Source: a virus (lineage: Duplodnaviria; Caudoviricetes). Taken from it: a DNA stretch of 61,397 nucleotides. The stretch covers positions 1 through 61,397 of the IMG/VR virus record IMGVR_UViG_3300042566_000075; one strand, written 5' to 3'. Each line of letters starts with the position of its first letter. Position 1 is the first letter of the stretch. The notes beneath the pieces were generated by a model, which saw nothing but the letters and a program-made list of their open reading frames with translations, was not told where the DNA came from and searched no databases. Shown piece after piece: positions 6,211-55,436 of this stretch. The position numbers and the translations under genes are program-made.

Positions 6211-6217
6211 GTATATA
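6189..6217 (+). promoter_or_regulatory. putative promoter for the 6225 small RNA
   Basis: TTTACG (6189-6194), 17-nt spacer, TATATA (6212-6217). Would start transcription near G6225, the first base of the hairpin. Confidence 0.35.
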
Positions 6218-6224
6218 CACCCTT

Positions 6225-6294
6225 GGAAGTTTGCTCCTTCCGTTAGGCACACTTTAACCCCCGGTTGCTCACTCAGCCGGGGGTTTTTATTTTT
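6225..6294 (+). ncRNA. candidate anti-Shine-Dalgarno small RNA 1 (hairpin with UUUGCUC loop plus intrinsic terminator)
   Basis: Stem GGAAG 6225-6229 / CTTCC 6237-6241. 6228-6241 is complementary over 10-12 nt to nine phage RBSs. Terminator follows. Confidence 0.6.
6256..6294 (+). terminator. rho-independent terminator at the convergence of replication and late transcription
   Basis: AACCCCCGGTTG-CTCACT-CAGCCGGGGGTT followed by a T-rich tract. Confidence 0.85.
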
Positions 6295-9200
6295 CCGGTG
6301 CGGCTGCTTGAATACCCGGCAGTGCAAACGGCGCTTCCTTCTTAGTGAAGGTTGAACCGCGCATCTGGAGGTCCCGCTCACGCTTGAACGCGTCGTAGGA
6401 GTTCTGAACAGTTTCTTCCGTAACAACCAGTGGCTCGACGGGGTGCTTTTTGTTGTATTCCACGAGCTTACGCCCTGCCGCGTCCATGTCGGTACGGTCT
6501 CGACTACCGTTTGTTTCGAAGTTGTACATCGCTTCGTTGAGGTCCCGTAGAAGCGACGTGCGTTGTTTTTCCGCGGTAGCGAATAGTTTGTTCCGCGCAG
6601 CGCGCTCCTTCTGGATTTGCGCTAGTTTTGTGGAGCCGAAGCCGGAAAGCTGAGCACCCAGTTGCGAAGAGGTTATCTCTGACTTAGCCAGCATCGGTAG
6701 TTCGCCGCGTGTTTCCGCGCCTTCTTCGGACAAACGGTACGTAGTAGCTACACCCTTAAATGCAGCGGGGAGAACTTTCTCCAGACCGCGAACTACGTCA
6801 CCTTTATACATGTCGGTGAGACCTTCACCGATGCCGGTAATTAGCGAGAGTCCCGGCACGTTAGCTTCGAGTGTCCGGAAAATAGTTTCACTAGTGGTAT
6901 CCGCCGGTTTACCTTCACGGAACCAGAGACCATCAAAAGTAGTACGTGATCCGATGTTAATGTCGGATAGCTCGGATATTGGGCCATTTACCAATATGTC
7001 GCTCAAGCGGTGCTGCAAGCCATCTATACCCGGAATGGTAATTTCCCCGAACTTACTAGGCATAAACTCGTACCGGAACCTGTAGTCAGAGTCGTTAGCG
7101 GTATAAGGGTTGCGCAGACGGCGAAGCTGCGCCTCCTCGTCATCATCGTCAGCCTCAAGCATATCTATGATAGTAGCAATAGTGCTATACAGCGGGAAAC
7201 CAGTTATGCCGTGGAACAAACCACCCATAAGCAAGACGCCCGTCAGTTCGTTCATGGCCTTTAGCCGGTCTTCGACAGACAGAAAGCCTGTCTTGCCACC
7301 CGTCAAAATGCGACGGAAGTTGTTATAGAAGAACGTAGTGGTGTTAACGGCGTACTGCTTAAAGAGAAACAACGCACGGCCAACGTCAGTACCCATCAAA
7401 CGAGGGCGGTTGAAGTCGCTGTAGTTACCCAACGTATCGTTTACGACCCCCACTGCCTTATCAACAGCAGCGTCGAAGTCTTTAGATTTGTTGTACTCCA
7501 ACTCGAAAGCCATCATAAAAGCTATTTCGCGGGTGATACGCTCCGAGGTGTTAAACAACACGGACATGCCGTTTATCGTGGACTCAGCAAGCTGTCCCGG
7601 AGTATACTTAGAAGCTCGGTCGGGCGTAGCTCGACTATCGAGAATACCCGCTACCTGAGTTTCAAAGACAGAACGCTCGTCACGAGCCATGGCAAAAGCC
7701 CGCTTTAGTACCGGGTTGGACCGCACAAACTGAGACTCACCGACAGTAGGTCCAGTATAGGATAGCTCCCCGTCGTCTTCCTCGACGATACCTATAGAGT
7801 CCCATATCTTGGAATACTTAGCCAGCATGATCGAAGACTTGGCGTAGCCGTAATCAGTCCATAGGCGCGGCATCACGCGGACAGGTATACCCGTTGTTTG
7901 CGCTACTGCGGTAGCAGCAGAGGTAAGGAACCAAACAAACGCAGCGCGGTTCAGTCTCGTGACAACGCGACCCGGTTCCTCTGGATTTATCTGCTCTAGT
8001 GCACGCTCTCCGATTTCCACGACGAAGGACTCAAGGCGCGCAGCTTCATCTAGCGGGAAGCCATCAAGGGAAGCCTTCGCTTCTTCGATAGTGTTTTTAA
8101 TACGCTGAGTGTACCGTAGACTGGTAAGCTGGTTAGCGTACTGAAAAGCAGTGGTTTTAAAGTTGCGGAACACATCTGCGCTAAAACCCGTCACGTTATC
8201 AGCGTGTAGGAATTGCTTGCGGATGCTCCGCTCAGGCAGTGTCATCAGGTAAACTTGGTATATCTGGTCTTTAATAGCGCTTACATCGACCTTGCCTTGG
8301 GTAGACGCTTTGTTGATGACCGAGAATATCTCCTGCAACATCCCGCTCTCTTCTTGGAAATTTTCCCGCAGAGAAGTGATGTCGTTACCAATCCGGAATA
8401 TACCATCGGTCCGAGGTACCTTTAGCTCGCGGGCGCGTTTGCGCAGAAAATTGTTACGTGCCCGCGCGCTTTCAAAAGCATAGAACTCACGCCCAGCATC
8501 CCCCTTGCCGACACGTAGCCAGTAGTCGCCGTAACGCTTAAAGGGAAAGTACTGCTCAGGAAAAATCGCTGGGTCAACATCAGGAAACTCGTCGTCGGAC
8601 GACTCTAGCTTACTTACGCGTTCTTTCTCCCGCTCAAGGCGCACGGCCTTCAAAAGAGCTTTCTTAGAAGCGGGGTCGATATCCAGCTTTTTGATTTGCT
8701 CGTCGAGCAGTGTGCGTGTGGTGCTGAGCATATCTTTGTAGTAGTCACGTATCTCTACGTATTGCTTATGCCCATTTTCTTGCTTACCTAGCTCTTCCCA
8801 CAGGTCGTACACCTCTTCGATCTGCGTCCGACGTTGGGTCAACTTGCCTTTAAAAGCAGCTTTTTGTTTAGGTGTAGCGGCTTTGTCCGCAATCAAAGCT
8901 TCATATCGCCGTACAACAGGGTCGTTAACAAGGGCGTCCGCCACTGTGTCATGGGCAGTCGGGTCCACACGATTTAGACGCGCAAGATGCATAGTGCTGC
9001 CCAGCACCTTTTGGCCGTTCTTACCCACGAACTTGGCGAAGCGCTGTGATATCTTAGCGAACCCACTGAGGTAAGCATTACGTTCTGCTCGCGCTTCATC
9101 TTCGAGAGTGGCTATACGCCGCAGGGCGGGCACTTCGCCTTCTTTCCATGCAATAATCCCGTCGGAGGGTAGCGCGTACAAGATACGTTTGAGCATAGTA

Positions 9201-12200
9201 TCGCCAATAGCGTTGTAGCGATCCTTCAGGCCGCCGAGGAAATCAGCAGCAGTGTGCCCTTCGATGGTGGTGCCAATACCTTCATCCAATATGCTCTTTG
9301 TCTCCGCACGGACGTCTCCATCGGGAAAGTCTTGGGCGGCGTTTGACAGCTGCACTTTACGCAAGCCCCGACTAATTTTCTTGTCGGATTTCTCAGCCTT
9401 CTTAGCTATTTTCTCAGCTTTAGCTGCCTTACGTTTTTGGAACCGTGTGCTTGCCGGTCCGGCTTTATTACCTTCGCGCACGGCACGGTCATGGGCCATC
9501 GCAAGAATAGTGGTAATCTCCGCGTCAGAAAAAGCTGCCTTGATGCGCATACGACGAGCAAAGTCTTTTACGATAGCAGCTAACTTAGCAAACATACTCG
9601 CTTCGATCCGCCCTGCTTCAGACCGCTGTGCAAGTACTTCCTCGACTGCACGGGCAAGTGGGTCTGTATCTCCGCTATAAGCGTTTGGGTTTTGCGCACG
9701 CCAAGCGTCGGTCTCGGCCCGTAGGTTACGGTTGGTATCATACATACCCCGCATCATCTTATCCAGACGCTGCCGAAACTGCTTCGCAAGACCGATATGA
9801 CCCAGCGTTTCATGGAAAAGAGTAGCTATGGCTTCTTCAGCAGTGTTGAGGTTATCAGCCACGATATAGACGTTACCGTCAGTATCCACTACGCCAGAAG
9901 GACTTAGCGCCTCTCCGCTAGTGATAGCCCCTTGAACTGAAGCAGGTAAGTCAGCCACCGACTGGACAACACTTGGTGCTTGCACGCCTGTGCGTTGCGC
10001 TACAGCTGCTACAATGGGAGTAACTTGGTCTACCGTGATATTACCGGGTTCACCGGGACGGAAGCGTTCGCCACTTATGGCCCGTTCAGCATATCGGGTC
10101 TTAGCCCCTTCGAGGACCGCACGAATTTCTTCGACTGGTTTACGACGGCTTTCAGTGGCAGTGGCAAGGAGGTTGTATGCCTTATCGTCTATCTGTTGCC
10201 CAACCTCTTCGTCCCAACGTGCAGTTTCAATCTCCTCAAGGAGAACGTCATAAGGGTCGGTTTCCGGCGCTACTTCCTCAACGGGTGCAACAGCTACCTC
10301 AGGTGCGATCTCTTCGGCTACTGGTGCGGGCTCAAGTGCGACCTCTTCGGTTACTGGCGCAACTTCTTCGGTTGCTAGCTCACGCGCTGCAATCTCTTGC
10401 CGCAGGGTTGCCTCGGCTTCAGCGTCCGCAGCTTCTTGTGCTGCTAGTTCTTGACGTCGCGTATCGACATAACCTTGTACATCTTCCTGTACAGCTACAT
10501 CGGGCGCAGCCACTATCTCAGGCGCAGCCGCTATCTCAGGCGCAGCCGCTATCTCAGGCGCAGCCGCTATCTCAGGCGCAGCCGCTATCTCAGGCGCAGC
10601 CGCTATCTCAGGCGCAGCCGCTATCTCAGGCGTAGGTGCAGGCGCAATGCCCACTTCACGCGCGCTTGCTTGGGCTATCGTTGGGATGGAGTCAGGGGCG
10701 GGGGCAGTGACTGATTTAATCGCAGCAGCAACAGGAGCTGCAGCTTGCACATCTAGTGGAGGAGCTGCAGGTGCAGCCTCAACAGTAGCCGCAGGAGGCG
10801 GAGGTGGGGCAGCAAACTTCTTGCCAGTAACCGCTTCCAGCGCAACCACGGGGTCACCACCATGCTTACCATTCGCAAGCTGGTTCTTAGCCATATCAAA
10901 CTGCTTTTGGTCAACGTCGTTCACATTGACGAGGGGATTATTGAGTATCGTGTCGTTCAGTAGCTGCCTAGCCGTGTCAACGCGTGTAGTCAGCTTGACT
11001 TTCTTATCCGCAAGGATGTTCTTAGCTTCGTCTAGTGCACCGACTCCCGCGTCCGTGCCAGTTGTAGGAACTGATACGCCAGAAACAGACTGCTCCAGTC
11101 CTCCTCCGACAGTCTCTCCAACGTCTGCAGCACCCGGTGCGGATGATGCGGTTCCGATATCAGCAGCAGCGCCTGCTCCACTTCCTCCGAGGTCATCCAC
11201 TCCGGTATCAGCATCAGCGACATCTATAGCTCCTTCCGCAGCTTCAAGGTTACGACGTGCAACCGCTTCAGCGACTTCTTGCTTCATGTTATATGCGGTG
11301 CGTAGGCGAGCGACCTCTGCTTCAAACGCAGCTTCTTCCGCTGGCATGCCCGCACGAAGCGCGGCAGTCTCAACCCGCTTAGCTACATTTTCTTCCTGAC
11401 GCGTTAACCGTCGGTCACCAAAGCCTTCAGTCGCACCTGCCACTGCACCTAGACCCGCGCCAGCAATACCTTCAAGCGTACCGGAACTAACCACGCCGCG
11501 CATGGTGTCAACGTCAAAGCCTTCGCGTTGAAGAGCGAGGTTCGTGGCAAGTTGTTCTTGTGCTCCCTGAACAAACTCAGGGACACCTTCCTTAGCTGCG
11601 ACACCCAATGCACGGCGACCTACGCCTTTAGCAGCTGCCTCTCCAGCTTCCGCTGCGGCAAGACGCCCAAACACACGCTGGCCTACCACCCTAGATAGAG
11701 CGCCTTCAATACCAGAAACACCTGATACCGCGCCTAAGCCGCCGCTAAGTAGGATTTGACCAAGGTTTTTCCCACTATATGCTTGCGCTGCGTCGGCAAG
11801 TGCTTCGGCCTTAGCTTCTGGTACACCTGCTTTTATATATTCTTCGCGCACTGCGTCATATATAGCGTTCTTAGCGGTACCTAGCCCCATGACGCCGCCG
11901 ACGAGAGCACCTGTACCCCCAACAACAGCGGCAGGAGCACCCGCATAAGTAGCAGCGGCAGTAGCCCCTATGGGTGCCGCCGCCGTACCAAAAGCCTGTG
12001 TAAGTGTATCAATCGGAGCTACAGCAAAGGCATTAATACCTGCGGCCACCTGCTGAAGAACGCCTTTGTTTTCGGCTTCTTTTAAGATTTTAGACTGCTT
12101 TTGTGCATCCTCTTTAGAGGACGCAGACATATATTCGTCAACCATCCCCTGCACATCTTTGATTGCTTTACGGACTTTTGTCCCTGCACCCGCAGCACCA

Positions 12201-12514
12201 GCGATAGCCTCAATACCGGCCCCGGTGCCTTTCATAATCCCCATGGGTATATCAGCTAAAAAGGCAAGTGGTTTACCTACAAAAGGTATTTTCTCTAACG
12301 CTGTCTCTTTTACGGGTGTTGGCTGCGCAGCTTGGGTTTGAACCTTTTTCTTTGGTCGGCCTTTAGCCAGATGGTCTGCAATCTGCTCAAAGGAGTAGCC
12401 AGCAGCCTGCGCACCTTGGACATCGAATTTATGCTCGCCCGCAAGGAAATAGGCTATTTGCGCGTCAGAGTATCCGGCCCTACGCGCAGCATCTATATCA
12501 AAAGTGCGGGGCAT
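6287..12514 (-). CDS. large internal virion/ejection polyvalent protein (2075 aa) with zincin-like HExxxH and PLxRFG-like motifs
   Basis: LFHETLGHIG motif, YFPFKRYGDY motif, duplicated N-terminal FDxxxAxxAGYS motif, last gene of the late operon, RBS CAGGAG. Confidence 0.75.
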   Translation of the reverse strand: MPRTFDIDAARRAGYSDAQIAYFLAGEHKFDVQGAQAAGYSFEQIADHLAKGRPKKKVQTQAAQPTPVKETALEKIPFVGKPLAFLADIPMGIMKGTGAGIEAIAGAAGAGTKVRKAIKDVQGMVDEYMSASSKEDAQKQSKILKEAENKGVLQQVAAGINAFAVAPIDTLTQAFGTAAAPIGATAAATYAGAPAAVVGGTGALVGGVMGLGTAKNAIYDAVREEYIKAGVPEAKAEALADAAQAYSGKNLGQILLSGGLGAVSGVSGIEGALSRVVGQRVFGRLAAAEAGEAAAKGVGRRALGVAAKEGVPEFVQGAQEQLATNLALQREGFDVDTMRGVVSSGTLEGIAGAGLGAVAGATEGFGDRRLTRQEENVAKRVETAALRAGMPAEEAAFEAEVARLRTAYNMKQEVAEAVARRNLEAAEGAIDVADADTGVDDLGGSGAGAAADIGTASSAPGAADVGETVGGGLEQSVSGVSVPTTGTDAGVGALDEAKNILADKKVKLTTRVDTARQLLNDTILNNPLVNVNDVDQKQFDMAKNQLANGKHGGDPVVALEAVTGKKFAAPPPPPAATVEAAPAAPPLDVQAAAPVAAAIKSVTAPAPDSIPTIAQASAREVGIAPAPTPEIAAAPEIAAAPEIAAAPEIAAAPEIAAAPEIAAAPEIVAAPDVAVQEDVQGYVDTRRQELAAQEAADAEAEATLRQEIAARELATEEVAPVTEEVALEPAPVAEEIAPEVAVAPVEEVAPETDPYDVLLEEIETARWDEEVGQQIDDKAYNLLATATESRRKPVEEIRAVLEGAKTRYAERAISGERFRPGEPGNITVDQVTPIVAAVAQRTGVQAPSVVQSVADLPASVQGAITSGEALSPSGVVDTDGNVYIVADNLNTAEEAIATLFHETLGHIGLAKQFRQRLDKMMRGMYDTNRNLRAETDAWRAQNPNAYSGDTDPLARAVEEVLAQRSEAGRIEASMFAKLAAIVKDFARRMRIKAAFSDAEITTILAMAHDRAVREGNKAGPASTRFQKRKAAKAEKIAKKAEKSDKKISRGLRKVQLSNAAQDFPDGDVRAETKSILDEGIGTTIEGHTAADFLGGLKDRYNAIGDTMLKRILYALPSDGIIAWKEGEVPALRRIATLEDEARAERNAYLSGFAKISQRFAKFVGKNGQKVLGSTMHLARLNRVDPTAHDTVADALVNDPVVRRYEALIADKAATPKQKAAFKGKLTQRRTQIEEVYDLWEELGKQENGHKQYVEIRDYYKDMLSTTRTLLDEQIKKLDIDPASKKALLKAVRLEREKERVSKLESSDDEFPDVDPAIFPEQYFPFKRYGDYWLRVGKGDAGREFYAFESARARNNFLRKRARELKVPRTDGIFRIGNDITSLRENFQEESGMLQEIFSVINKASTQGKVDVSAIKDQIYQVYLMTLPERSIRKQFLHADNVTGFSADVFRNFKTTAFQYANQLTSLRYTQRIKNTIEEAKASLDGFPLDEAARLESFVVEIGERALEQINPEEPGRVVTRLNRAAFVWFLTSAATAVAQTTGIPVRVMPRLWTDYGYAKSSIMLAKYSKIWDSIGIVEEDDGELSYTGPTVGESQFVRSNPVLKRAFAMARDERSVFETQVAGILDSRATPDRASKYTPGQLAESTINGMSVLFNTSERITREIAFMMAFELEYNKSKDFDAAVDKAVGVVNDTLGNYSDFNRPRLMGTDVGRALFLFKQYAVNTTTFFYNNFRRILTGGKTGFLSVEDRLKAMNELTGVLLMGGLFHGITGFPLYSTIATIIDMLEADDDDEEAQLRRLRNPYTANDSDYRFRYEFMPSKFGEITIPGIDGLQHRLSDILVNGPISELSDINIGSRTTFDGLWFREGKPADTTSETIFRTLEANVPGLSLITGIGEGLTDMYKGDVVRGLEKVLPAAFKGVATTYRLSEEGAETRGELPMLAKSEITSSQLGAQLSGFGSTKLAQIQKERAARNKLFATAEKQRTSLLRDLNEAMYNFETNGSRDRTDMDAAGRKLVEYNKKHPVEPLVVTEETVQNSYDAFKRERDLQMRGSTFTKKEAPFALPGIQAAAPEK
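10503..10632. repeat. 18-bp tandem repeat x7 (GGCGCAGCCGCTATCTCA) encoding PEIAAA on the minus strand
   Basis: Six identical units plus one with a single mismatch. Confidence 0.95.
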
Positions 12515-45576: not shown

Positions 45577-45697
45577 CCTCACTTTGTTAGGTAGTTTCGT
45601 GCGATTTTTCTTGTGTTATCCCTCAAATTGTGGGACAAACAAATCATCGAGAGAGCAACAACGCTACTCGATACCACACACAATAGGAGCAAACATT

Positions 45698-46180
45698 ATG
45701 ACTAACACAGTATCAGTAACAGCAGCACGCAATGCCTACATGAAGGCTACCGAGTCTACATATGGTAAGCTGCGCGAATATGCCGAGAGCCTTACCGAGC
45801 AGCTAGGCGAAGGTTGGTGGCTTATCCCAATGAAAGGCCCGCTGTCTGGTAATGAAGCCAAGGTGCGGGAAGCTATCCGAGCAGAGAAGGCTCTAGTGCT
45901 TGAGCTAGCCAAGGAGAAGAAGGCCAAGAACCCTAAGTATAATGAGTATAAGCCTTGGTCTGACGTGCTTAAGTATGTGAAGCCTGAAGTCAAGAAGGGT
46001 GCTGGTGCTAATGCGCCACGGGATATCCACGACCGCTTTGTCACCGAGCTTACCAAGCTCTATAAGGCAGGCAAGGCAGATGAGAACCCGACCGAGGCAA
46101 CACTCGACGCTACGTTCTTTATCGGCAAGGGCCTCGAAATACTCGGCATCGACCTGACACAATTCAACCTAATGGACTAA
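45698..46180 (+). CDS. first early gene, hypothetical (160 aa)
   Basis: AGGAGCAAAC RBS before ATG 45698. Followed by two hairpins. Confidence 0.8.
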   Translation: MTNTVSVTAARNAYMKATESTYGKLREYAESLTEQLGEGWWLIPMKGPLSGNEAKVREAIRAEKALVLELAKEKKAKNPKYNEYKPWSDVLKYVKPEVKKGAGANAPRDIHDRFVTELTKLYKAGKADENPTEATLDATFFIGKGLEILGIDLTQFNLMD

Positions 46181-46187
46181 TCGGGAA

Positions 46188-46268
46188 GGGGAGGCGCAAG
46201 CCTCCCCGACCTAACTAAGTTACAACCCCTCACCGAACCCTCATGCGCAAGCATGGGGGTTTTTGTTT
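46188..46268 (+). terminator. GCAA-loop hairpin (46188-46207) plus intrinsic terminator (46236-46268)
   Basis: GGGGAGGC-GCAA-GCCTCCCC, then AACCCTCATGC-GCAA-GCATGGGGGTT-TTTGTTT. Confidence 0.85.
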
Positions 46269-46363
46269 GCACCTCGCACAGCAGGGTGAACGCGTCTAAC
46301 TTAGTTAGGTGTCGCCATGATAGTAGTCCTGCGGATGAGGCGACCAAGTGGGTAGGTGAAAAC

Positions 46364-46787
46364 CTTACAATACATAAACCTTACGTTACTAGCCCTAACT
46401 AAGTTAGACCCCCATGATAGTAAGCATGAGGATGAGGCGACCGAGGTATTGTAAGGAAAGTTGGGTAACGTAAGAAAAGTAAGCCCTATTGTAAGAAAAT
46501 GACCCACGCATTTCTGCGCTTTGTAAGGGTCGTAAGGGTTGTAAGGTTTTTTTCAGGGTTCGCTCCGGAAAGACGCCCTCTCGCAGATGCACCGCGTAAC
46601 CCGTAAGAAAAATCGCCCCAGCCCTTATTATTATTATTTTTACCTTACTTTCTTACATTACAACCAATTTCCTTACTGAAACCCGCAGGCTTCTGCCATT
46701 TTCTATTGTAAGTTTTTCTCTCTCACTTTTCTTACATTACCCCAATTTTCCTTACAAAGCGCAGTTTTCCGTCACCCATTTCCTTAC
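46364..46787. other. probable replication origin: inverted GTAAG/CTTAC iterons around an AT-rich core
   Basis: 18 GTAAG/CTTAC in about 425 bp. Orientation flips across TTATTATTATTATTTTT at 46625-46641. Confidence 0.7.
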
Positions 46788-46792
46788 ACTGC

Positions 46793-46870
46793 CTAACCTT
46801 GTTAGACGTGCCCGACCTCGTGCCCACATGACTTGACATAAGAGGGACTTTGTGTTACATTAAAAAGAAA
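46793..46870 (+). promoter_or_regulatory. early promoter module A
   Basis: Palindrome, CCCGACCTCGTGCCCACAT, TTGACA 46833-46838, 17 nt, TG-n-TACATT 46856-46861. Confidence 0.8.
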
Positions 46871-46930
46871 AACAAAAGGCCAGACAGGTTCGACCCAACG
46901 GACCTAACAAAGTTAGAGAAGGAGCAAAAT

Positions 46931-47122
46931 ATGCACTGCAATTGTGGCGATGAAATAAATCCGAGACGCGTAGCCCTTGGCTACCGAACATGTCCTGTGT
47001 GTGGGGACCGAGAGGCACGGCAGGTAAAGTTTACCACTGTGCCTCTCAACAAGTCCAACTACGTTGTGGTCTCCGACTACCGCGAACTGGCATGGCTCAA
47101 CCCTAAGAACGTCAACATCTAA
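46931..47122 (+). CDS. DksA/TraR-like C4 zinc-finger protein (63 aa)
   Basis: CNCGDEINPRRVALGYRTCPVC. GAAGGAGCAAA RBS. Confidence 0.6.
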   Translation: MHCNCGDEINPRRVALGYRTCPVCGDREARQVKFTTVPLNKSNYVVVSDYRELAWLNPKNVNI

Positions 47123-47133
47123 CAAAGTGAGGA

Positions 47134-47379
47134 ATGAAAATGGTTAGTGACTTAAGCATTAAGATGAAAGCGGCTGTCCTGCTACGCAGATATGACCAGC
47201 TACGCAGAGAGCTACGAGAGACAGAGTATGAGTTAGGCCCAGCCGTGGCCGAATACGGCATACAGACTGGACGCCGAGGCCTATCGAAAGACCACTTCCG
47301 TAGCGAACTTGAACGTGAGGAACTTATCCGACTGGAGATAGCAGCCGAGCGTGACGCATGGGAGAAAGCAAATGGATGA
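47134..47379 (+). CDS. hypothetical early protein
   Basis: 81-aa ORF with GAGG RBS. Confidence 0.65.
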   Translation: MKMVSDLSIKMKAAVLLRRYDQLRRELRETEYELGPAVAEYGIQTGRRGLSKDHFRSELEREELIRLEIAAERDAWEKANG

Positions 47380-47521
47380 GCTGAACGATTGGGACAAGGT
47401 AGCACTGGCCTTCGACATACTGGAGAACGCCGAGGTGATGCAGGAGTTTGACACAACACTATGGATACAGGTGGACCGCGACTTGTGGGAAGCCTTTTGC
47501 GAAGAAGGATATAACGGATGA
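47372..47521 (+). CDS. 49-aa acidic protein (not in ORF track), MDELNDWDKVALAFDILENAEVMQEFDTTLWIQVDRDLWEAFCEEGYNG
   Basis: GGAG RBS, overlaps both neighbours, 14 of 49 residues are D/E. Confidence 0.65.
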   Translation: MDELNDWDKVALAFDILENAEVMQEFDTTLWIQVDRDLWEAFCEEGYNG

Positions 47522-47676
47522 CCGAACAACCAACCAAAGACCGCAACTACTACCGCATGCTCACCAACAACGAGCTTATCGCCACCGCCAAGGAACGCTT
47601 ACACCTAACAGAGTTAGAGCAGGTGCTAACCGAGCGGTTACTAAAAGCCGAGCGCGAGAGGAAGAACAATGACTAA
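47518..47676 (+). CDS. 52-aa hypothetical protein (not in ORF track)
   Basis: ATGA overlap, AAGGA RBS. Confidence 0.6.
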   Translation: MTEQPTKDRNYYRMLTNNELIATAKERLHLTELEQVLTERLLKAERERKNND

Positions 47677-47767
47677 CACACTACTACATATAGCAGCCGA
47701 GATATTCTTCGTAAGCGCAGGTATCTTCGCAGTGTGGGCCATCCACACAACCATCAAGGGGAAATGA
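47669..47767 (+). CDS. 32-aa single-TM peptide (not in ORF track)
   Basis: MTNTLLHIAAEIFFVSAGIFAVWAIHTTIKGK. GAGG RBS, fills the gap. Confidence 0.55.
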   Translation: MTNTLLHIAAEIFFVSAGIFAVWAIHTTIKGK

Positions 47768-47768
47768 C

Positions 47769-48185
47769 ATGGGTTATCGGTCAGAAGTAGATGTAGTTAT
47801 CTACGCACCAGTGGACAGCGGCACATCATACCCGTTGCTCAAGCTGTGGTTCGACGAGAACTACCCCGTCAAGGAAGCCAAGGACGAATGGGAAGCGAGG
47901 ATTACCTACGACCCAGAGAGCCGAGGCATCTCCGTCTACTACAATGACGTGAAGTGGTATGACACCTACGAACATCCGCAAGCGGTGGAGAGAGTGTTCG
48001 ATGCCATCGACCGACTGCTAGACGAGCAAGCAGTGTTGGGCGACCCCACGGCGTTCAACATAGCATGGGAGTTTGTGCGCCTTGGCGAGGAAGACCAAGA
48101 CACCGAGATAAGGATGAGCGCCAACGCAGATGCGGTAATCGCAGTGAACCGCTCAACAGAGATATCGTTTCAATCACAAGCCTAA
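47769..48185 (+). CDS. acidic early protein (MGYRSEV...KWY...FVRLGE type)
   Basis: 138-aa ORF in the early operon. Confidence 0.75.
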   Translation: MGYRSEVDVVIYAPVDSGTSYPLLKLWFDENYPVKEAKDEWEARITYDPESRGISVYYNDVKWYDTYEHPQAVERVFDAIDRLLDEQAVLGDPTAFNIAWEFVRLGEEDQDTEIRMSANADAVIAVNRSTEISFQSQA

Positions 48186-48207
48186 CAAAGTTAGAAGGAG
48201 CAAACAC

Positions 48208-49152
48208 ATGGGCTGGAATAATCACTACCGCAACTGGGACATACCCAGACTTGCATCATACAACGACGCAGTGAAGCGCGAGGCGACAGTCAAACCTATT
48301 CGCGGCGATGCTAACGGAACTAAGCCGCTGGGTGCGCGCAACAAGAAATACTACAACATACGCAAGGAGGGTAATGACATCGTGGTGCGGATGCATGCCA
48401 CGGACATCGTGCGTTACCATCCAGATAATACGCTAACCATACAGAATGGTGGCTGGGTATCGCCCTCGACGCACGACATGTTCAACATGTTACTTGGGCT
48501 ACATATGCGCACCTTCCACTACAGGGCTTGGGTTACTTGCTACATGCGCAGGGCCATAGGGTCAAACGCGCCTGAGATTGTGCATGGCGAGTGGCGGCTA
48601 CCTAACAACGTGCCAGTGAGGATTGTCCCGCACGAAGGCCACTGGCTACTCGACGACATGGAAGAGAACGTGACGCATGCGGTCAACCGCAAGGCAGCTA
48701 ACAAAGTTAGGAAGGAATACGCAGGGTTTCGGACATACCTCTCCGCAATGACCAAGCTGCGCACCGAGTATGTATCGCAGCCGCGCTGGAATGGGCCTGA
48801 TGTGACCCTACCCGTGGTGAAGGTAAGCCGCAGTGAGCTTGAGGCGCACAACCTCATAGACTACACCGCTGTGGTGGAAGCTAACCGCAAGTGCGCGTCA
48901 CAAGGAGACAACCTCAAGGGACTGATACGTAGCGACAAGCCGGAGGATAACTACCGAGCCTTGCTTACTATCATGAGAAGTGCCCACGAGGGACGGTATT
49001 GGATTAGCTCCGAGGGTATATCCATCGCACCAGAGCGCATAACCAAAACGTTCGAAGAACTAGTCATGTTCATGCACCGCTATGAGGTGCTGGAGCGCAA
49101 GCCAGCGAAGCGGGGTGTGCCGACACGGGACCGCTATATAAATTGGTTCTAA
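48208..49152 (+). CDS. hypothetical early protein (314 aa)
   Basis: GAAGGAGCAAAC RBS. Confidence 0.8.
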   Translation: MGWNNHYRNWDIPRLASYNDAVKREATVKPIRGDANGTKPLGARNKKYYNIRKEGNDIVVRMHATDIVRYHPDNTLTIQNGGWVSPSTHDMFNMLLGLHMRTFHYRAWVTCYMRRAIGSNAPEIVHGEWRLPNNVPVRIVPHEGHWLLDDMEENVTHAVNRKAANKVRKEYAGFRTYLSAMTKLRTEYVSQPRWNGPDVTLPVVKVSRSELEAHNLIDYTAVVEANRKCASQGDNLKGLIRSDKPEDNYRALLTIMRSAHEGRYWISSEGISIAPERITKTFEELVMFMHRYEVLERKPAKRGVPTRDRYINWF

Positions 49153-49228
49153 CAAAGTTAGAGGTCCCCGACCTCGTGCCCACATCACTTGACTTGGGTA
49201 TATTATTGTGCTACAATAAAAAGAAAAA
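49149..49228 (+). promoter_or_regulatory. early promoter module B
   Basis: Palindrome, CCCGACCTCGTGCCCACAT, TTGACT 49189-49194, 17 nt, TG-n-TACAAT 49212-49217. Confidence 0.85.
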
Positions 49229-49291
49229 GCTGGGAAATCAGCCACCTAGAGTAAACAAACCTAACAAAGTTACACACGAAGGAGCAATATA

Positions 49292-50359
49292 ATGTCTATT
49301 GATTTTGGTTCAAACATCTCGCTTGCCGAAGCCGCAGAGCTTATCGCAGCTATCCCCGACAATCGGTTCCTACTTGAGGGTGAGCCTGGGATTGGCAAGT
49401 CCAGTATCATGAAGTCGCTCAAGGCCAAGCTAGGTGACCGCTACGTCTATGCCTACTTTGACTGCGCTCAGAAAGACCTTGGCGACATCGCCATGCCGAG
49501 CGTGAACCGCGAGCTACGGGTAACAGAGTATTTCCCCAATGCTGCGCTCCAGTTGCAGCATGGCAAGCCAGCAGTCATCATGCTTGACGAGTTTGCTAAG
49601 GCTCCGCCGCCTGTGCAGAATATGCTTCACCCGCTACTCGAAGAACACAACCCACGGCTAGGCGACATTGAGCTACATCCAGACTCAATCGTGTTCCTTA
49701 CGTCTAACTTGTCAAGCGATGGTGTTGGCGATGTTATCAAGGGCCATACTCTTAACAGAGTATCCAGAGTGCGCGTAGCCAAACCAGACAGCGACCAGTG
49801 GCTTGAGTGGGCTATCAACAACGACATCGAGCCTGTTGTCATGGCTTGGGTAAAGCAGTTCCCTCATGCGCTGGCTTCATACACTGACGGCACGCAGAAC
49901 GAGAACGCATATATCTACAACCCCAAGGCTATGCAAAAGTCGTATGTCAGCCCACGCTCTTTGTCTCGTGCTTCTAACATAGTTAGGCGTCGTGAGCAGG
50001 TATCATCCAACGCTCTTACCGCTGCGCTATCAGGCACAATCGGTGAGGCAGCAGCGCGGGATATGCAAGCCTACATCACATACCAAGACCAGCTACCGAC
50101 ATGGGAACACATCACATCCAAGCCCAATGATGCGGCTATCCCTGCGTCAGCAGGTGCATGTGCGGTGCTTATCTTCGGTGCAATCATGAAGGTGACCAAA
50201 GAGACAATGGCTCCGTTCATGACCTACCTGTCTCGCTTCGAACCAGAGTGGCAAGCATGCTTCGCTATTAACATTGCGAAGAACCCACAGCGTCAGTCGG
50301 TTGCGTTTTCATCCGCTGCGTTCGCTAACTGGGTGCGGGACAATGAGGACTTACTCTAA
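49292..50359 (+). CDS. MoxR/dynein-related AAA+ ATPase
   Basis: GEPGIGKS Walker A, IMLDEF Walker B, TSN sensor I, LNR and SPRS motifs. Confidence 0.88.
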   Translation: MSIDFGSNISLAEAAELIAAIPDNRFLLEGEPGIGKSSIMKSLKAKLGDRYVYAYFDCAQKDLGDIAMPSVNRELRVTEYFPNAALQLQHGKPAVIMLDEFAKAPPPVQNMLHPLLEEHNPRLGDIELHPDSIVFLTSNLSSDGVGDVIKGHTLNRVSRVRVAKPDSDQWLEWAINNDIEPVVMAWVKQFPHALASYTDGTQNENAYIYNPKAMQKSYVSPRSLSRASNIVRRREQVSSNALTAALSGTIGEAAARDMQAYITYQDQLPTWEHITSKPNDAAIPASAGACAVLIFGAIMKVTKETMAPFMTYLSRFEPEWQACFAINIAKNPQRQSVAFSSAAFANWVRDNEDLL

Positions 50360-50381
50360 TACCAACACAAGGAGCAAACTA

Positions 50382-51578
50382 ATGGATATGCAGAAAGCAG
50401 AGCGTAAGCTCAAGAAAGTCAAGATTAACCTCATGCGCAACCCCATGTTCGCATTGTGGTCTGGCATCATGATGGTCGGTAAGACTAGCGTAGCAGAGGA
50501 CGTGCCAACGGCATGCACCAATGGCCGCGACGAGATATACGGCTTGGAGTTCATAACAAAGTTAGACGAGAAGCAGCTAGGGTTCGTCGTGCTACACGAG
50601 AACATGCACAAGGGCTTACGCCACATGACAACATGGCAGAAGCTCCGAGCAGAGAACCCACGCCTAGCTAACATCGCAATGGACCATGTAATCAACCTTA
50701 TGATTATGGAGATGGACCCGAACGAGCAAGTCATCGCCATGCCTCGCCTTGATGATGGCACACCGATGGCGTGTTACGATACCAAATACAAAGGCATGAA
50801 CACCAAGCAAGTCTTCGACCTACTGAAGCAGGACAATCCAGATGGCGAAGGTGGCGAAGGCTTCGACGAGCATGACTGGGATGGGGCCAAGGAGATGACC
50901 GCCGAGGACCGCAAGGAACTAGAGCGCGAGGTGGACCAAGCCCTACGCCAAGGCCAGATAGCAGCTATGAAAGCTACGGGTAAAGGTGGGCTAAGTGTCA
51001 ACCGAGAGCTAGGCGACATGCTCCAGCCACAGATAGACTGGCGCGAAGCACTGCGTGAGTTTGTGTCCGCTACCTGCAATGCCAAGGATGCGTCATCATG
51101 GCGCAGGGTCAACAGGCGCATGCTGGGCCAAGATGTGTATCTTCCTACGCTAGTAGGGGAGAAGGTCGGACATATCGCTATCGGCATAGACACAAGTGGC
51201 TCTATCGGTGCGGACGAACTCAATGTGTTCCTGTCCGAGGTCAAGGCTATCGTCGAGGAGGTGCATCCCGACAAGCTAGACCTCATCTATTGGGATGGCA
51301 ACGTAGCGGGGCATGAGGTCTACGACATGGCAACTATGTCTAACCTTGTTAGCTCTACTAAGCCAGTAGGTGGAGGCGGCACTGACCCAACCTGTATGAT
51401 GCGCTACCTCAAGGAACAGAACATCAAGCCAGAGTGCATCATCCAGCTGACTGACGGGTATGTCTGTGACTGGGGTGACGAGTGGGATGCGCCCATCATG
51501 TGGGTAATCTCAGAGTCGCGCTACACATCGGGACGTATCGTAGCGCCAGTGGGTAAGACTGTGCATATCAAGGGGTAA
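50382..51578 (+). CDS. putative metallopeptidase plus VWA-like domain protein (DUF2201-type)
   Basis: TACTNG, HENMH (HExxH), IDTSGSI MIDAS, GGGGT and LTDG motifs. Start at ATG 50382. Confidence 0.85.
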   Translation: MDMQKAERKLKKVKINLMRNPMFALWSGIMMVGKTSVAEDVPTACTNGRDEIYGLEFITKLDEKQLGFVVLHENMHKGLRHMTTWQKLRAENPRLANIAMDHVINLMIMEMDPNEQVIAMPRLDDGTPMACYDTKYKGMNTKQVFDLLKQDNPDGEGGEGFDEHDWDGAKEMTAEDRKELEREVDQALRQGQIAAMKATGKGGLSVNRELGDMLQPQIDWREALREFVSATCNAKDASSWRRVNRRMLGQDVYLPTLVGEKVGHIAIGIDTSGSIGADELNVFLSEVKAIVEEVHPDKLDLIYWDGNVAGHEVYDMATMSNLVSSTKPVGGGGTDPTCMMRYLKEQNIKPECIIQLTDGYVCDWGDEWDAPIMWVISESRYTSGRIVAPVGKTVHIKG

Positions 51579-51588
51579 GGAGCAAACA

Positions 51589-51834
51589 ATGACTAAAGCA
51601 ATCATACGTTACGGCTACGACAACTATATCGTGGAGGCAGAGGATGCGCTGCGCATACATGAAATCCTAGCCAAGGCTGAACACTACCATAGGAACTACC
51701 GCTCAACAGCAGATGGCGGCACTACCTACCATGTCTGGGAGCAGGACATGAGCAGTGAGATGCGTGACATAACGCTTATGCCCGATGGCCTTTACCGCAT
51801 GGCAAAGCTGGCGGGTAAACCAGAAGATAAATAA
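51589..51834 (+). CDS. hypothetical early protein
   Basis: 81 aa, AAGGAGCAAAC RBS. Confidence 0.75.
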   Translation: MTKAIIRYGYDNYIVEAEDALRIHEILAKAEHYHRNYRSTADGGTTYHVWEQDMSSEMRDITLMPDGLYRMAKLAGKPEDK

Positions 51835-51896
51835 AATACCGGATAGCAAACCGGACGACCTAACTAGGTTACATATAACACAATAGGAGCAAACTA

Positions 51897-52739
51897 ATGA
51901 GCATTACATCTTCGTCGGTTCTTGTCGAACTGAACATCTCCGTCTGGACAGCCAACAAGCTGGACAAGGACACCACCACCAAGCTGACCGCTGACAGCAA
52001 CGCGACTAGCGACGCAGCCCAAGTGCGTAAGAACCTCATGGCTGGCACAACCTTACGCAAGGACATAGCGGACTTCGCTGCGCTGTGCCGCACATGGCAC
52101 AACAGCCAGACCCTACCTTGGGCAGACCGAGGTTCTAGGCTACTACCCACAAGCCTCTTCATGGCATACAAGACCGAGGTTAACGCACGACGCGCTACGT
52201 TCACGCAGTTGGTAGATAAGTTTCGCCTCGAATACCCGAAGCTGATGACCACTGCGGCACAGCACATGGGCGACCTACATGACCCTGCAGATTATCCGAG
52301 CGTGGATGAGGTGATGGACAAGTTTGGCTTCCGCCTTGTGTTCTCTCCTGTGCCAGAGGCGGGTGACTTCCGTGTGGACATACCCAACCAAGAACTCGAC
52401 GCCATACGCAAGGAATATGATGCTAACTTTGTTAGCCGTGTTGACGAAGCCATGCGCACCCCGTGGGAGCAACTGCACAAGATGCTGACCACTATGTCTA
52501 ACAAGCTAGGGCTAGAGGAGAAGACCCGCTGGCACGACACCTTCCTCACGAACGCACAGGAGATGTGCGGGATGCTTACTCACCTCAACCTCACTGGCGA
52601 CCCCAAGCTAGAGGATGCGCGGCGCAAGCTGGAGTCGGCGTTGATTGGCTTGGATATTGATGACCTCAAGGAAAGCGAAGACATCCGCACCAACGTCAAG
52701 GGCAAGCTCGATACAATCCTTTCGGGATTTGATTGGTAA
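51897..52739 (+). CDS. DUF3150-like protein
   Basis: LNISVW..TLPW...G.RLLP...LNLTGDP.L pattern. Linked to the AAA/VWA pair. Confidence 0.65.
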   Translation: MSITSSSVLVELNISVWTANKLDKDTTTKLTADSNATSDAAQVRKNLMAGTTLRKDIADFAALCRTWHNSQTLPWADRGSRLLPTSLFMAYKTEVNARRATFTQLVDKFRLEYPKLMTTAAQHMGDLHDPADYPSVDEVMDKFGFRLVFSPVPEAGDFRVDIPNQELDAIRKEYDANFVSRVDEAMRTPWEQLHKMLTTMSNKLGLEEKTRWHDTFLTNAQEMCGMLTHLNLTGDPKLEDARRKLESALIGLDIDDLKESEDIRTNVKGKLDTILSGFDW

Positions 52740-52762
52740 GGCACAGGTAAGGAGTAACAACA

Positions 52763-53632
52763 ATGACTAAGCAACTATACCCATGCGAGGGTTTCCCGAA
52801 CGTATATATCAACCGCAACCCCGCCTTCGTAGACCGTACTACGCGGTTTGTGGTCCACGACAGGATGCTACCTCTAATAGAGGAGCTGTGTAAGCACCGC
52901 CCACAATGGACGTTTAAATCCCTTAACGCATCAATAAACACAGATGTAGTGGCGGCACATCACTTTGATGTTTATGAGAACGGCCAGTCGCTAGGCGAAA
53001 TCTCCGTTGAGTCAGGCTATCGCGCTGATACAGGGTCGATAACCTATTACCGGTTCGACAACCCAAGGTTGTCCGGTAAGCGCCAGCGCGGTATTTGGAA
53101 TAAAACCAGTAAGCTCGACCTAGCAGTGAAGAACATACTTAAAGCCTTTCACGCTAAGACGTTAGCCGAGACCATTGTAGAGGTCGAGCGACAGATAGAG
53201 GTTAAGCTGAACGAGAATACTAGGACTGCTAATGCAGATTTTGACAGCGGCTTCAGACGCATGGGCGCGTTCCTCACGGGATATGTAATGAGAAACTGGG
53301 ATGCGGTAGCACCTGCGCTAAAGGCAGCGGGCGCACCAGTGCCAGACGACCTGCCTGAGCGTCTTGCCGTTAGGAACGAAGCAGAGGGTGTAGAACTGGC
53401 CTACCGCAACCAAGGAGGGTTTACTATAATCACGCGAGGCAGCGACTACATCATGGTGCGCGGCTTCGGGGACGAGCGAGAGACAGAGGTCAAGTCCAGC
53501 GAACAGCTGACAGACAACATCCGCCGTAACCTTGGCTTCCTCAAACTGACCGAGGGCAGTGCGATTATACCCAACGTAGGTGTGCGACTTAACGAGAGCA
53601 CCTTCTTTGTTATTGATAAGGAACTTGTATGA
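52763..53632 (+). CDS. hypothetical early protein (289 aa)
   Basis: AAGGAGTAAC RBS. Confidence 0.8.
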   Translation: MTKQLYPCEGFPNVYINRNPAFVDRTTRFVVHDRMLPLIEELCKHRPQWTFKSLNASINTDVVAAHHFDVYENGQSLGEISVESGYRADTGSITYYRFDNPRLSGKRQRGIWNKTSKLDLAVKNILKAFHAKTLAETIVEVERQIEVKLNENTRTANADFDSGFRRMGAFLTGYVMRNWDAVAPALKAAGAPVPDDLPERLAVRNEAEGVELAYRNQGGFTIITRGSDYIMVRGFGDERETEVKSSEQLTDNIRRNLGFLKLTEGSAIIPNVGVRLNESTFFVIDKELV

Positions 53633-53805
53633 CCGAGGAACTAAAACGCAAACGCGGACAGCGTGGGCTGGGCAAGCGTCCGGCCTTGGGAGGTCACGTT
53701 ACCATACGCCTATCGAGCGAAGCTATGGACTTCTATAGGAGCTTCCCTAGCTTCACAGCTAAGATGCGTGAAGTCTTAACAGACTACGCTGATACACACA
53801 GATAA
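53629..53805 (+). CDS. 58-aa BrnA-antitoxin-like ribbon-helix-helix protein (not in ORF track)
   Basis: RGQRGLGKRPALGGHVTIRLSSEAMDFYRSFPSFTAKMREVL fits the GRP..VTIRL..V..F...RIN..L layout. ATGA overlap, AAGGA RBS. Confidence 0.7.
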   Translation: MTEELKRKRGQRGLGKRPALGGHVTIRLSSEAMDFYRSFPSFTAKMREVLTDYADTHR

Positions 53806-53863
53806 CATATAGTTGCTCCTAACTATGTTAGACTAGGCCGCCTTTCGGGGCGGTCTTTTTTTT
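53803..53863 (+). ncRNA. candidate anti-Shine-Dalgarno small RNA 2 (3'-UTR hairpin with GCUCCU loop plus terminator)
   Basis: TAACAT(AT)AGTT-GCTCCT-AACTATGTTA hairpin at 53803-53830, then terminator. Confidence 0.5.
53836..53863 (+). terminator. rho-independent terminator ending the early operon
   Basis: GGCCGCCT-TTCG-GGGCGGTC followed by T8. Confidence 0.92.
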
Positions 53864-53875
53864 CTTCATTAGCGT

Positions 53876-53903
53876 TTGACAATGTAAATTGAGGGTGTAT
53901 GGT
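53876..53903 (+). promoter_or_regulatory. sigma70-like middle promoter
   Basis: TTGACA 53876-53881, 16 nt, TATGGT 53898-53903. Confidence 0.6.
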
Positions 53904-53929
53904 GAGGAGCCAAACAAGGAGTAAACAAG

Positions 53930-54130
53930 ATGAATAATACAAGAGAACTTCGCGCATTCCTAGTCGAACAGATGCAGGGTGTAGCTTCGGGTAAGGTCAA
54001 CAGTGAGAAGGCCAAGTCCATTTCCAACCTGTCACAGCAAATCTACAACACCATTAACATCGAAGTGAAGATGGCGTTGTCGAAGGCAAAGCTGAATGGG
54101 CAAAGCCTAGATGCTGTCGAGTTCAATTGA
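53930..54130 (+). CDS. hypothetical protein (66 aa)
   Basis: AAGGAGTAAAC RBS. Confidence 0.75.
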   Translation: MNNTRELRAFLVEQMQGVASGKVNSEKAKSISNLSQQIYNTINIEVKMALSKAKLNGQSLDAVEFN

Positions 54131-54812
54131 CCTAACAGCACTTCCTGATGACCTCGTCCGTCAACTGGAACGCACCGTCACAGACTACGAGCGTAAGCAG
54201 AATAAGCTACGCTCATGGCAAGAGGTGCTTGACCACGGGACGGACGAGGAAATCATGGAGAAAGCGCAGGAGGAGTGCGACAAGGGCGCACCCATTACCT
54301 TTGCACGGAACTACCCTAGGATTGGCTGGCCGTTAATGACAGACCTAGCCCGTGAGATTGTCCCGTACAATATGCGAGACCATCCGCGCAGACCCGTCAT
54401 CATGAAGGGTGCAATAGAAATCTGCTACAGGAGGTTTTCGCTATCAGAGGGCCGCAACGCACCAAACGGCTGGGTAATCCGTGTCTTTGAACGGGCAATG
54501 CGTATGAGCAAGAAGACGCTCATCGAGTGGCAGGAAATATCAGACTTCGCTAGTGAGCTAGCAACTAAGATTGCTAACCGGCATTACGGAGTAACCTACC
54601 ACTTTTGGGACTATACCAGACCCCGAAGGTATGAAGCCCGTCGAGATGAACAATTAGTTTTGATGAGCGGACGCTGGGTTAGCCTACCGCACGAACAATA
54701 TAGAAACGTGCAGATGTTCCAAAAGGTAATCCGCAAGACAGAGAAGCTGGAAGACCGACTGGCACTACTACGCGCAGCAAGGAAAGAACGAGCCGATGGC
54801 AGCAACACCTGA
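54111..54812 (+). CDS. hypothetical protein (233 aa)
   Basis: Long ORF overlapping both neighbours. Confidence 0.7.
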   Translation: MLSSSIDLTALPDDLVRQLERTVTDYERKQNKLRSWQEVLDHGTDEEIMEKAQEECDKGAPITFARNYPRIGWPLMTDLAREIVPYNMRDHPRRPVIMKGAIEICYRRFSLSEGRNAPNGWVIRVFERAMRMSKKTLIEWQEISDFASELATKIANRHYGVTYHFWDYTRPRRYEARRDEQLVLMSGRWVSLPHEQYRNVQMFQKVIRKTEKLEDRLALLRAARKERADGSNT

Positions 54813-55101
54813 GAAGAAAGTGAAGGATAAGGTTAAGTCCATCCTCACTGCACACGAGACATATTTTTTTCTACCCGCAACCCACGGCTTTGGCCGTAGC
54901 GGTGTCCCCGACATTGTAGCCTGTGTGAACGGTTGGTTCCTTGCGATTGAGTGCAAGGCAAACGGTGGTAAGACTACTGCCCTACAGGTGCGCGAGATTG
55001 AAGCGATACGCAGGTCTAACGGCGTAGCCGTAGTAGTAGACGAGACGAACTACGACATGCTCCCTGACCTCATCAAAAAACTGAAAGGGGAAACACGGTG
55101 A
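54796..55101 (+). CDS. VRR-NUC domain nuclease (Holliday junction resolvase-like)
   Basis: TPEKKVK, GVPDIV, AIECKA and TALQ motifs. Confidence 0.88.
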   Translation: MAATPEKKVKDKVKSILTAHETYFFLPATHGFGRSGVPDIVACVNGWFLAIECKANGGKTTALQVREIEAIRRSNGVAVVVDETNYDMLPDLIKKLKGETR

Positions 55102-55394
55102 ACCAAGGTGTAGAGCTTTTACTCCAGCGGATGGATAGCCACCCTGAAGAGTTTAACACACACAACCCAGACAAGCGCGTCCGCGAGAAGTGGCACTGGG
55201 TGACGGGGCCGATTAAGACGCGGATGGACTTTATGAATAGGAACCCAGACGACGACCCAGTGATGCACTTCGAGTCCCTTGGGTTCCTGACAGACCGCGA
55301 AATCCTCATGCTTCATGATAAGTATATGAGCATCCAAGGAGACAGCTTCAGTCGCAGGGTTATGGCTACGCTACTAACAGATGGCGAAGCCTAA
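55098..55394 (+). CDS. hypothetical protein
   Basis: GTGA overlap, 98 aa. Confidence 0.7.
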   Translation: MNQGVELLLQRMDSHPEEFNTHNPDKRVREKWHWVTGPIKTRMDFMNRNPDDDPVMHFESLGFLTDREILMLHDKYMSIQGDSFSRRVMATLLTDGEA

Positions 55395-55436
55395 CAGAGT
55401 TAGGTGTGGATACTATCATAGGAAGGAGCAGAGGCG

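Follow-up and report, generated by a model that had tools for sequence, protein, structure and literature searches.

A candidate anti-Shine-Dalgarno hairpin in the 3' untranslated region of an early operon from an uncultured lake phage lineage

Introduction

Control of gene expression through ribosome sites is known in bacteriophages, where it is exerted by proteins in T4 and on single targets in P1 and P7. In T4, the repressor RegA and the GGAG-cutting nuclease RegB, both of them proteins, shut down early mRNAs class-wide via their ribosome sites. In P1 and P7, the c4 antisense RNA is cut from the transcript of its own targets, and its loops pair with a ribosome site, shutting off the downstream genes; c4 lies upstream of its target, in the immunity operon of a temperate phage. 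Enterobacterial small RNAs (sRNAs) of the CpxQ/SroC type are derived from the 3' untranslated region (UTR) of an mRNA, use the terminator of that mRNA and have mapped ends.

Pairing with Shine-Dalgarno (SD) sequences has also been described for bacterial RNAs. The 3' UTR of the icaR mRNA of Staphylococcus aureus carries a C-rich motif complementary to the SD region, and the pairing blocks translation initiation (PMC3868564). The Cuckoo, or CcsR, RNAs of Alphaproteobacteria consist of two to four adjacent hairpins with variable stems, each with CCUCCUCCC (PMC4615179). UTR-derived non-coding RNA candidates have been mapped in Pseudomonas phages, with no anti-SD claim in the passages that describe them (PMC10914365). 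A class-wide anti-SD RNA mechanism in phages was not described in the literature searched, among the matches listed.

Here we analysed a predicted hairpin, hairpin 2 (53807-53828), in a phage record referred to below as the window, that is, the whole stretch of 61,397 nucleotides. Hairpin 2 differs from c4 in being a 3' UTR element and has no likeness to it in sequence or structure; like the sRNAs of the CpxQ/SroC type, its RNA shares the terminator of the operon and would arise from the operon 3' end. The outcome proposed for it is that of RegA and RegB, which are proteins, whereas the candidate here is an RNA. What it has in common with icaR is an anti-SD motif in a 3' UTR, a bacterial one in that case (PMC3868564); however, the candidate phage targets, which are predicted only, are at least seven other ribosome sites of a polycistronic operon, and the ribosome site of the gene just upstream of the hairpin is unmatched. 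The Cuckoo RNAs resemble the phage elements in combining variable-stem hairpins with a constant C/U-rich, anti-SD-like loop motif, but the phage has one hairpin with CUCC (UUUGCUC in a second element, hairpin 1), and we rejected identity with a Cuckoo RNA because the sequence contains a single CUCC as opposed to two to four CCUCCUCCC hairpins (PMC4615179). Finally, the ends of the CpxQ/SroC-type sRNAs and of the Pseudomonas phage candidates (PMC10914365) are mapped, whereas the RNA of hairpin 2 is predicted from sequence.

Results

The window corresponds to a complete virus record of IMG/VR, with direct terminal repeats, and its DNA is contained in lake-water metagenomes (at least 24 runs, all of them DNA among the matches listed). 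Its genes form two blocks. The + strand block runs from about 45584 across the record end to 6210 and holds small unknown genes together with genes for an AAA ATPase, a DUF2201 protein, a resolvase, DNA polymerase A and a DUF927 primase-helicase-like protein; the minus-strand block (6287 to 45545) holds terminase, portal, head and tail genes. Judged by gene content, the former would comprise the early and middle genes and the latter the late genes. The last late gene (6287-12514, minus strand) encodes 2,075 amino acids with a run of APEIAA repeats and an HExxH-like motif, FHETLGH, and its product is probably a large protein with a virion or ejection role. Among named phages, the nearest DNA polymerases, those of Rhizobium phage RHph_TM3_14A and Pseudomonas phage KPP25, share just 36% identity with that of the window, and the window DNA from 53000 to 55000 found no match in the named phage collections.

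The last gene of the first + strand operon is an open reading frame for 58 amino acids (53629-53805, + strand), a BrnA-like ribbon-helix-helix (RHH) candidate. It matched no Pfam or PHROG family at default cut-offs, and PF14384 (BrnA_antitoxin) gave a sub-threshold match in three of its four aligned relatives (best E 0.005), so that the RHH label given in the initial annotation stands at sub-threshold level only. The next operon has a sigma-70-like promoter, TTGACA-16-TATGGT (53876-53903, + strand; 10/12 positions in a promoter scan), followed by the ribosome site AAGGAGTAAAC and the ATG of its first gene (53918-53932, + strand), and the promoter motif TTGACA(A/C)TGTA reappears at the homologous place in relatives. 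At 53929, the start codon of this operon, metagenome contig variants and relatives switch to different downstream genes, and the cassette of terminator, promoter and ribosome site upstream of that point is common to the mosaics.

As first described, the TAA stop codon of the RHH-like gene (53803-53805) is followed by CATATAGTTGCTCCTAACTATGTTAG, which places hairpin 2 in the 3' UTR, between this stop codon and an intrinsic terminator. RNAfold predicted an AU-rich hairpin (53807-53828, + strand) in which 53807-53815 pair with 53820-53828, giving nine pairs, two of them G-U, and a CUCC loop (53816-53819), rather than the 10-bp stem with a GCUCCU loop that had been proposed. The terminator (53835-53863, + strand; fold and terminator scan) consists of a nine-pair stem with six G-C pairs (53835-53856), a UUCG loop (53844-53847) and a T8 run (53856-53863), and exactly six bases separate it from hairpin 2, in line with the earlier statement that it follows within 6 nt. 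The 8-mer TTGCTCCT, taken in the initial annotation for an exposed seed directed against ribosome sites, is indeed located at 53813-53820 and is the complement of the AGGAGCAA ribosome sites. In the RNAfold prediction, the probability of being unpaired was close to 1 throughout CUCC, whereas the G before it had 0.30, the U after it 0.27 and the UU below 0.1. The CUCC half of the 8-mer is therefore predicted to be exposed and the rest of it mostly paired, and, as only CUCC is reliably unpaired, the 8-nt seed would be half buried.

By itself, hairpin 2 is weak and ordinary. Folded alone, it reached -5.1 to -5.7 kcal/mol, and 29 of 1,000 mononucleotide shuffles folded equally well; hairpins with at least nine contiguous pairs gave 60 register/loop entries in the window (about 40 distinct), as against 32-58 in ten shuffles. 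An 86-nt stretch that includes the terminator had z = -2.35, with 5 of 200 shuffles folding equally well. Hairpin 2 was absent, as a DNA inverted repeat, from the output of a repeat search, and the fact that two of its nine pairs are G-U, unlike in a DNA inverted repeat, suggests an RNA rather than a DNA feature. No promoter of its own was found by eye, and the promoter scan listed none just upstream. Rfam release 15 gave no match at the gathering score in the whole window; the best sub-threshold matches between 53600 and 54000 were the sRNA-shaped SorY (20.2 bits; threshold 111) and SorX (18.4 bits; threshold 46.6).

The 8-mer occurs 12 times in the window, compared with 2.2 expected, and its complement is the commonest ribosome site there. 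Ten of the 12 copies read AGGAGCAA on the + strand, nine of these ten precede + strand start codons, and seven of the nine belong to the operon ended by hairpin 2. These seven, found by motif search at 45685, 46920, 48196, 49280, 50370, 51578 and 51885 (span 45685-51892, + strand), are the proposed targets. The two remaining copies, the only ones in + sense, are those of hairpins 1 and 2. Leaders at 48208, 50382 and 51897 have AGGAGCAAAC, and a late leader at 37266 has AGGAGACTG. GGAGCAA was present in 9 of the 27 SD-led + strand open reading frames of the window, compared with 0 of 23 on the late strand; across the window and eight relatives that carry the UUUGCUC loop of hairpin 1 (G001-G008), each genome had it in 9-13 of 21-43 such frames of the + strand, the late strand having 0-1. 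The early and middle genes (45685-51892, 59685 and 1547) have in common a ribosome site in extended form, (A/T)AGGAGCAAA(C), and the late genes have AGGAG with varied continuations; the extended site may be regarded as a sequence tag that separates the temporal classes.

We predicted the net cofolding gain of the RNA from 53795 to 53862 with start regions of both strands. It averaged -6.8 kcal/mol over 41 + strand starts and -4.0 kcal/mol over 38 late starts, and ten + strand starts reached a predicted -9.9 to -17.1 kcal/mol after the cost of opening hairpin 2; for the seven AGGAGCAA target sites, the predicted net pairing was -10 to -17 kcal/mol. The ribosome site of the RHH-like gene itself, AAGGAA, has no match to the hairpin 2 motif.

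In the relatives G001 and G002, hairpin 2 is unchanged while the RHH-like protein is down to 79% and 67% identity. Contig variants from two lake runs have about 30 differences in 53633-53760, but only three in 53761-53866, namely 53837 G>A, the loss of one T at 53856 and 53865 T>C. The terminator is kept in relatives, and the change at 53837 turns a G-U into an A-U pair. The exact 16-mer of hairpin 2 was found in 18 IMG/VR stretches; two known relatives alone have the same context, and the others fall in unrelated coding sequence.

A protein search with the RHH alignment (16 loci) and a search with the DNA pattern TAAC-N3-GTTA plus terminator, in which CTCC was not demanded (eight viral and four metagenome loci), together yielded seven sequence types of the hairpin 2 3' end. 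(G/A)CTCC stood directly 5' of TAAC in all seven types, and the preceding 8-16 nt differed. CUCC was apical in the predicted fold of five types; three registers occurred among these folds, and in one of the registers the loop had 8 nt. The two others (L303 and L277) have no such hairpin, and CUCC there follows an A/U-rich run; it is predicted to be partly unpaired in L303 (probability 0.15-0.65), and three of its four bases are paired in the minimum-energy fold of L277 (probability of being unpaired 0.21-0.91). Of the loop region, whose conservation the initial annotation had made a condition of its reading, the (G/A)CUCC core is kept in 7/7 types and the 8-mer TTGCTCCT in 2/7, the bases before CUCCU being UUG, UUA, UAA or UCG according to type. 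Stem covariation in relatives, proposed at the outset as a check, was not significant: in the register of the window, the helix was 77.8% paired over eight rows and had a single double change; this paired share was matched by 37 of 500 shuffles. RNAalifold (eight rows) returned a consensus of a small palindrome hairpin plus the terminator, without covariation, and did not prefer the large hairpin.

Seed and targets of hairpin 2 showed no co-change, the ribosome sites staying GGAGCAA-dominant in G005 and G014-G017 whatever the variant (GGAGCAA shares in G014-G017: 7/28, 9/22, 3/11 and 5/13). Because the seed varies beyond CUCCU while the ribosome sites stay GGAGCAA-dominant, loop and targets do not change together; and because the bases before CUCC vary while the ribosome sites stay dominated by GGAGCAA, the conserved part is a generic anti-SD core and not a private seed of 8-11 nt.

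The motif was present in all nine fetched genomes that have a terminator at the homologous place, including G008, in which the layout is different. There, upstream of the homologous promoter (L171, about 10190-10290 of the oriented record), a different gene is followed by the CCTAACATGTTAGG palindrome, GCTCC and a terminator; the loop of this terminator holds ACTCC. No such motif was found in the 110 nt upstream of the homologous promoter of G006, which no terminator precedes, and L281-283, L285 and L287 have neither the CTCC-palindrome block nor a terminator at the homologous place. Overall, the comparison gives moderate support to a selected, accessible anti-SD core at the operon end and no support to the specific 8-nt seed.

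Hairpin 1 (6225-6241, + strand) pairs GGAAG with CUUCC around the loop UUUGCUC and is followed by a terminator at 6257-6284. We found its exact 17-mer, GGAAGTTTGCTCCTTCC, in at least 119 IMG/VR stretches; among the 80 loci listed, 65 have it 8-16 nt downstream of the stop codon of a conserved 64-amino-acid gene and ahead of a variable, covarying terminator. The product of this gene (..GIRGLRVWR; gene, hairpin and terminator within 6016-6292 of the window) has at least 563 IMG/VR relatives in a protein search, no Pfam family and no match in the named phage collections. The exact 17-mer was present in 28 of 79 usable loci (from the best 80 of at least 563), and most of the remaining loci had compensated stems (GAGAG/CTCTC, GACAG/CTGTC, GAAAG/CTTTC or GCAAG/CTTGC), with a few loop variants as well, UUAGCUC and UUGACUC being among the variant loops of hairpin 1; the apex GCUCC was constant, apart from ACUCC in three loci. 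Over 46 distinct rows, 90.9% of the helix was paired and four of the five pairs had double changes, values that none of 500 shuffles reached. The comparison thus identifies hairpin 1 as a real structured RNA family, although absent from Rfam, and as a stronger element than hairpin 2; the result shows that selection acts in the clade on an anti-SD hairpin located at the end of an operon. Its loop contains UUUG, which we take to fit the YUNR U-turn motif.

A covariance model of the hairpin 1 family (filters off, E up to 10) gave 15 matches, of which 6221-6246 scored 32.1 bits (E 8e-6); there was no match at 53800-53835 with E up to 10. On this ground we rejected hairpin 2 as a member of the family, and it also follows an RHH-like and not the 64-amino-acid gene. 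The initial annotation had matched the two hairpins by loop and layout. The order of hairpin and terminator is the same, but the loop UUUGCUC places the 8-mer differently; what the two have in common is GCUCC on the 3' side of the apex and an intrinsic terminator thereafter. Hairpin 2 is confined to one lineage, whereas hairpin 1 is clade-wide.

The sense-strand 8-mer occurs twice each in the window, G001, G002 and G003, and the hairpins make up both copies in the first three and one of the two in G003. In G004-G008 there are one to three copies, with a terminator only after the one in the 17-mer hairpin, and none of the other sense-strand 8-mers in G003-G008 is a hairpin-plus-terminator site. 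We also compared loops with ribosome sites in 18 records. Genomes with variant hairpin 1 loops (G009-G013) have one to three matching ribosome sites (GGAGCTAA and GGAGTCAA), which are not dominant, and in G016 and G017, where the loop is CUGCUC, the ribosome sites are still GGAGCAA; these data are weak evidence for a co-change of the hairpin 1 loop with its ribosome sites.

A possible promoter, TTTACG (in the codons for G-L-R), 17 nt and TATAnn, is located at 6187-6224, within and just past the end of the 64-amino-acid gene, and ends about 7 nt before hairpin 1; its TAT(A) is present in 27-35 of 49 distinct loci, and the last T of the -10 box is not conserved. With a possible promoter just upstream, hairpin 1 may be a small RNA of its own. 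On the minus side, the + strand terminator (6257-6284) lacks a U run, and late transcripts may therefore extend, in antisense orientation, into the region of hairpin 1.

Discussion

We tentatively propose, with somewhat less than even confidence, that hairpin 2 is a lineage-specific, accessible anti-SD element in the 3' UTR of the early operon, which would pair with AGGAG(CAA) ribosome sites. Hairpin 2 and its terminator would form the 3' end of the RNA of the first + strand, presumably early, operon, and the selected feature would be an accessible CUCC(U), preceded by G in the phage of the window, on top of an easily opened AU-rich stem. As part of the mRNA, or as a terminator-protected fragment of about 60 nt, the 3' UTR could pair with the AGGAG(CAA) sites of early and middle mRNAs and lower the translation of these mRNAs of the phage itself. 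Three routes are conceivable: a processed fragment acting in trans, the mRNA itself, or transcripts reading through to the next ribosome site, 100 nt further on. The first of these is close to the initial annotation, which had envisaged a processed sRNA exerting negative feedback on its own operon, and such a role would go beyond the sequence. Accumulation of the RNA, its pairing with ribosome sites and translational repression are steps that we infer. In such a scheme, hairpin 2 would duplicate, in one lineage, the job that the hairpin at 6225 does across the clade. Three points count against an anti-SD function: four nucleotides make a small loop for a kissing contact; the seven types share descent, so the conserved CTCC may just mark the edge of a conserved block; and the 3' arm belongs to a palindrome family that would have a function of its own.

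An ordinary 3'-end structure, in which the extra hairpin guards the early mRNA from 3' exonucleases or aids termination and CUCC has no pairing role, appears unlikely to us. It accords with the weak, statistically ordinary stem of hairpin 2 and with the presence of a hairpin before each of the three terminators at + strand operon ends in the window (46237, 53835 and 6257), and the invariance of the hairpin-terminator block in close relatives is paralleled, but for a few changes, in the terminator region at 46211-46262. However, such a structure leaves unexplained why (G/A)CUCC is found in all seven types amid a changing 5' side, why two types have CUCC but no hairpin, and why GCTCC recurs in G008 in another layout.

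The 3' arm of hairpin 2 overlaps a CTAAC palindrome, as had been noted: CTAACTATGTTAG, at 53819-53831 inside the early block, is one of 13 exact 5-3-5 copies of CTAAC-N3-GTTAG. Allowing at most one mismatch, we counted 20 matches in the window, compared with 1.9 expected, and 19 of them lie within 45578-55403. They are located before ribosome sites, promoters and terminators as well as inside open reading frames, G001 and G002 retain them at the same positions, and other lineages have palindromes with N2, N3 or N4 spacing or with other half-sites (CCTAC-N4-GTAGG and GTTAC-N3-GTAAC). These observations raise the alternative of a DNA-level element, in which the palindrome is a regulator site upstream of the next promoter and the anti-RBS match is a relic of an inverted module of palindrome, ribosome site and ATG. 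The alternative arises because the minus strand of 53806-53831, CTAACATAGTTAGGAGCAACTATATG, reads like the forward modules of this kind at 46904, 48182, 49261 and 51860; the strong enrichment of the palindrome family and its confinement to the early region speak for it, as does the palindrome that L285, L287 and G006 have at the same gene end, just before TTGACA, with neither CTCC nor a terminator. Yet elsewhere only the palindrome arms are conserved and the flanks vary, whereas at 53819-53831 the flank is conserved too. Moreover, among all such palindromes of five genomes, a complementary upstream arm is exclusive to that of hairpin 2: its pairing comprises nine contiguous pairs in the window and G002 and five in G005, G014 and G015, and the other palindromes have 0-5, mostly 1-3. 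The minus-strand ATG and reading frame are not conserved, and CTCC accompanies the terminator, a feature of the RNA level. We consider a DNA-level element unlikely. That a translated micro-ORF on the minus strand (MLSVCISVVC) instead has its ribosome site and start here, a reading that the initial annotation had named as its own refuter, is very improbable: AGGAG does stand 7 nt before an ATG on that strand, but the ATG is confined to the type of the window, with none suitably spaced in G005, L275, L276 and L277, the frame has 10 codons in the window and G002 and 32 in G001, the minus strand has no evident promoter, and all neighbouring genes are on the + strand.

If hairpin 2 is read as an anti-SD element together with hairpin 1, a broader and more speculative scheme can be outlined, which we hold to be somewhat unlikely. 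In a clade of freshwater phages, a private, extended form of the ribosome site, AAGGAGCAAAC, would tag the early and middle genes, and anti-SD hairpins, hairpin 1 clade-wide and hairpin 2 in one lineage, would end the + strand operons, accumulate, pair with the tag and switch translation from early and middle to late genes, as an RNA-only counterpart of RegA and RegB. Were this true, a large group of uncultured lake phages would time its expression via small RNAs directed against its own class of ribosome sites, and a simple sequence rule would sort the genes of unknown phages into temporal classes. Hairpin 2 alone would be a smaller gain, as the reappearance of the motif, within one lineage, at another operon end and in three different local layouts.

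Two observations concern the start of the early block. After the first early gene, at 46181-46262, a GC-rich hairpin, GGGGAGGC-GCAA-GCCUCCCC, is followed by a palindrome (46211) and a terminator (46237); in this hairpin an SD-like arm is paired to an anti-SD-like arm, and the layout resembles that of hairpin 2. The adjoining region at 46263-46930, about 670 bases, is gene-free; a module consisting of a palindrome plus ..CATGATAGTA..GAGGATGAGGCGACC is repeated there, at 46296 and 46395, alongside many repeats rich in CTTAC/GTAAG, and the stretch could serve as an origin or as a small-RNA region.
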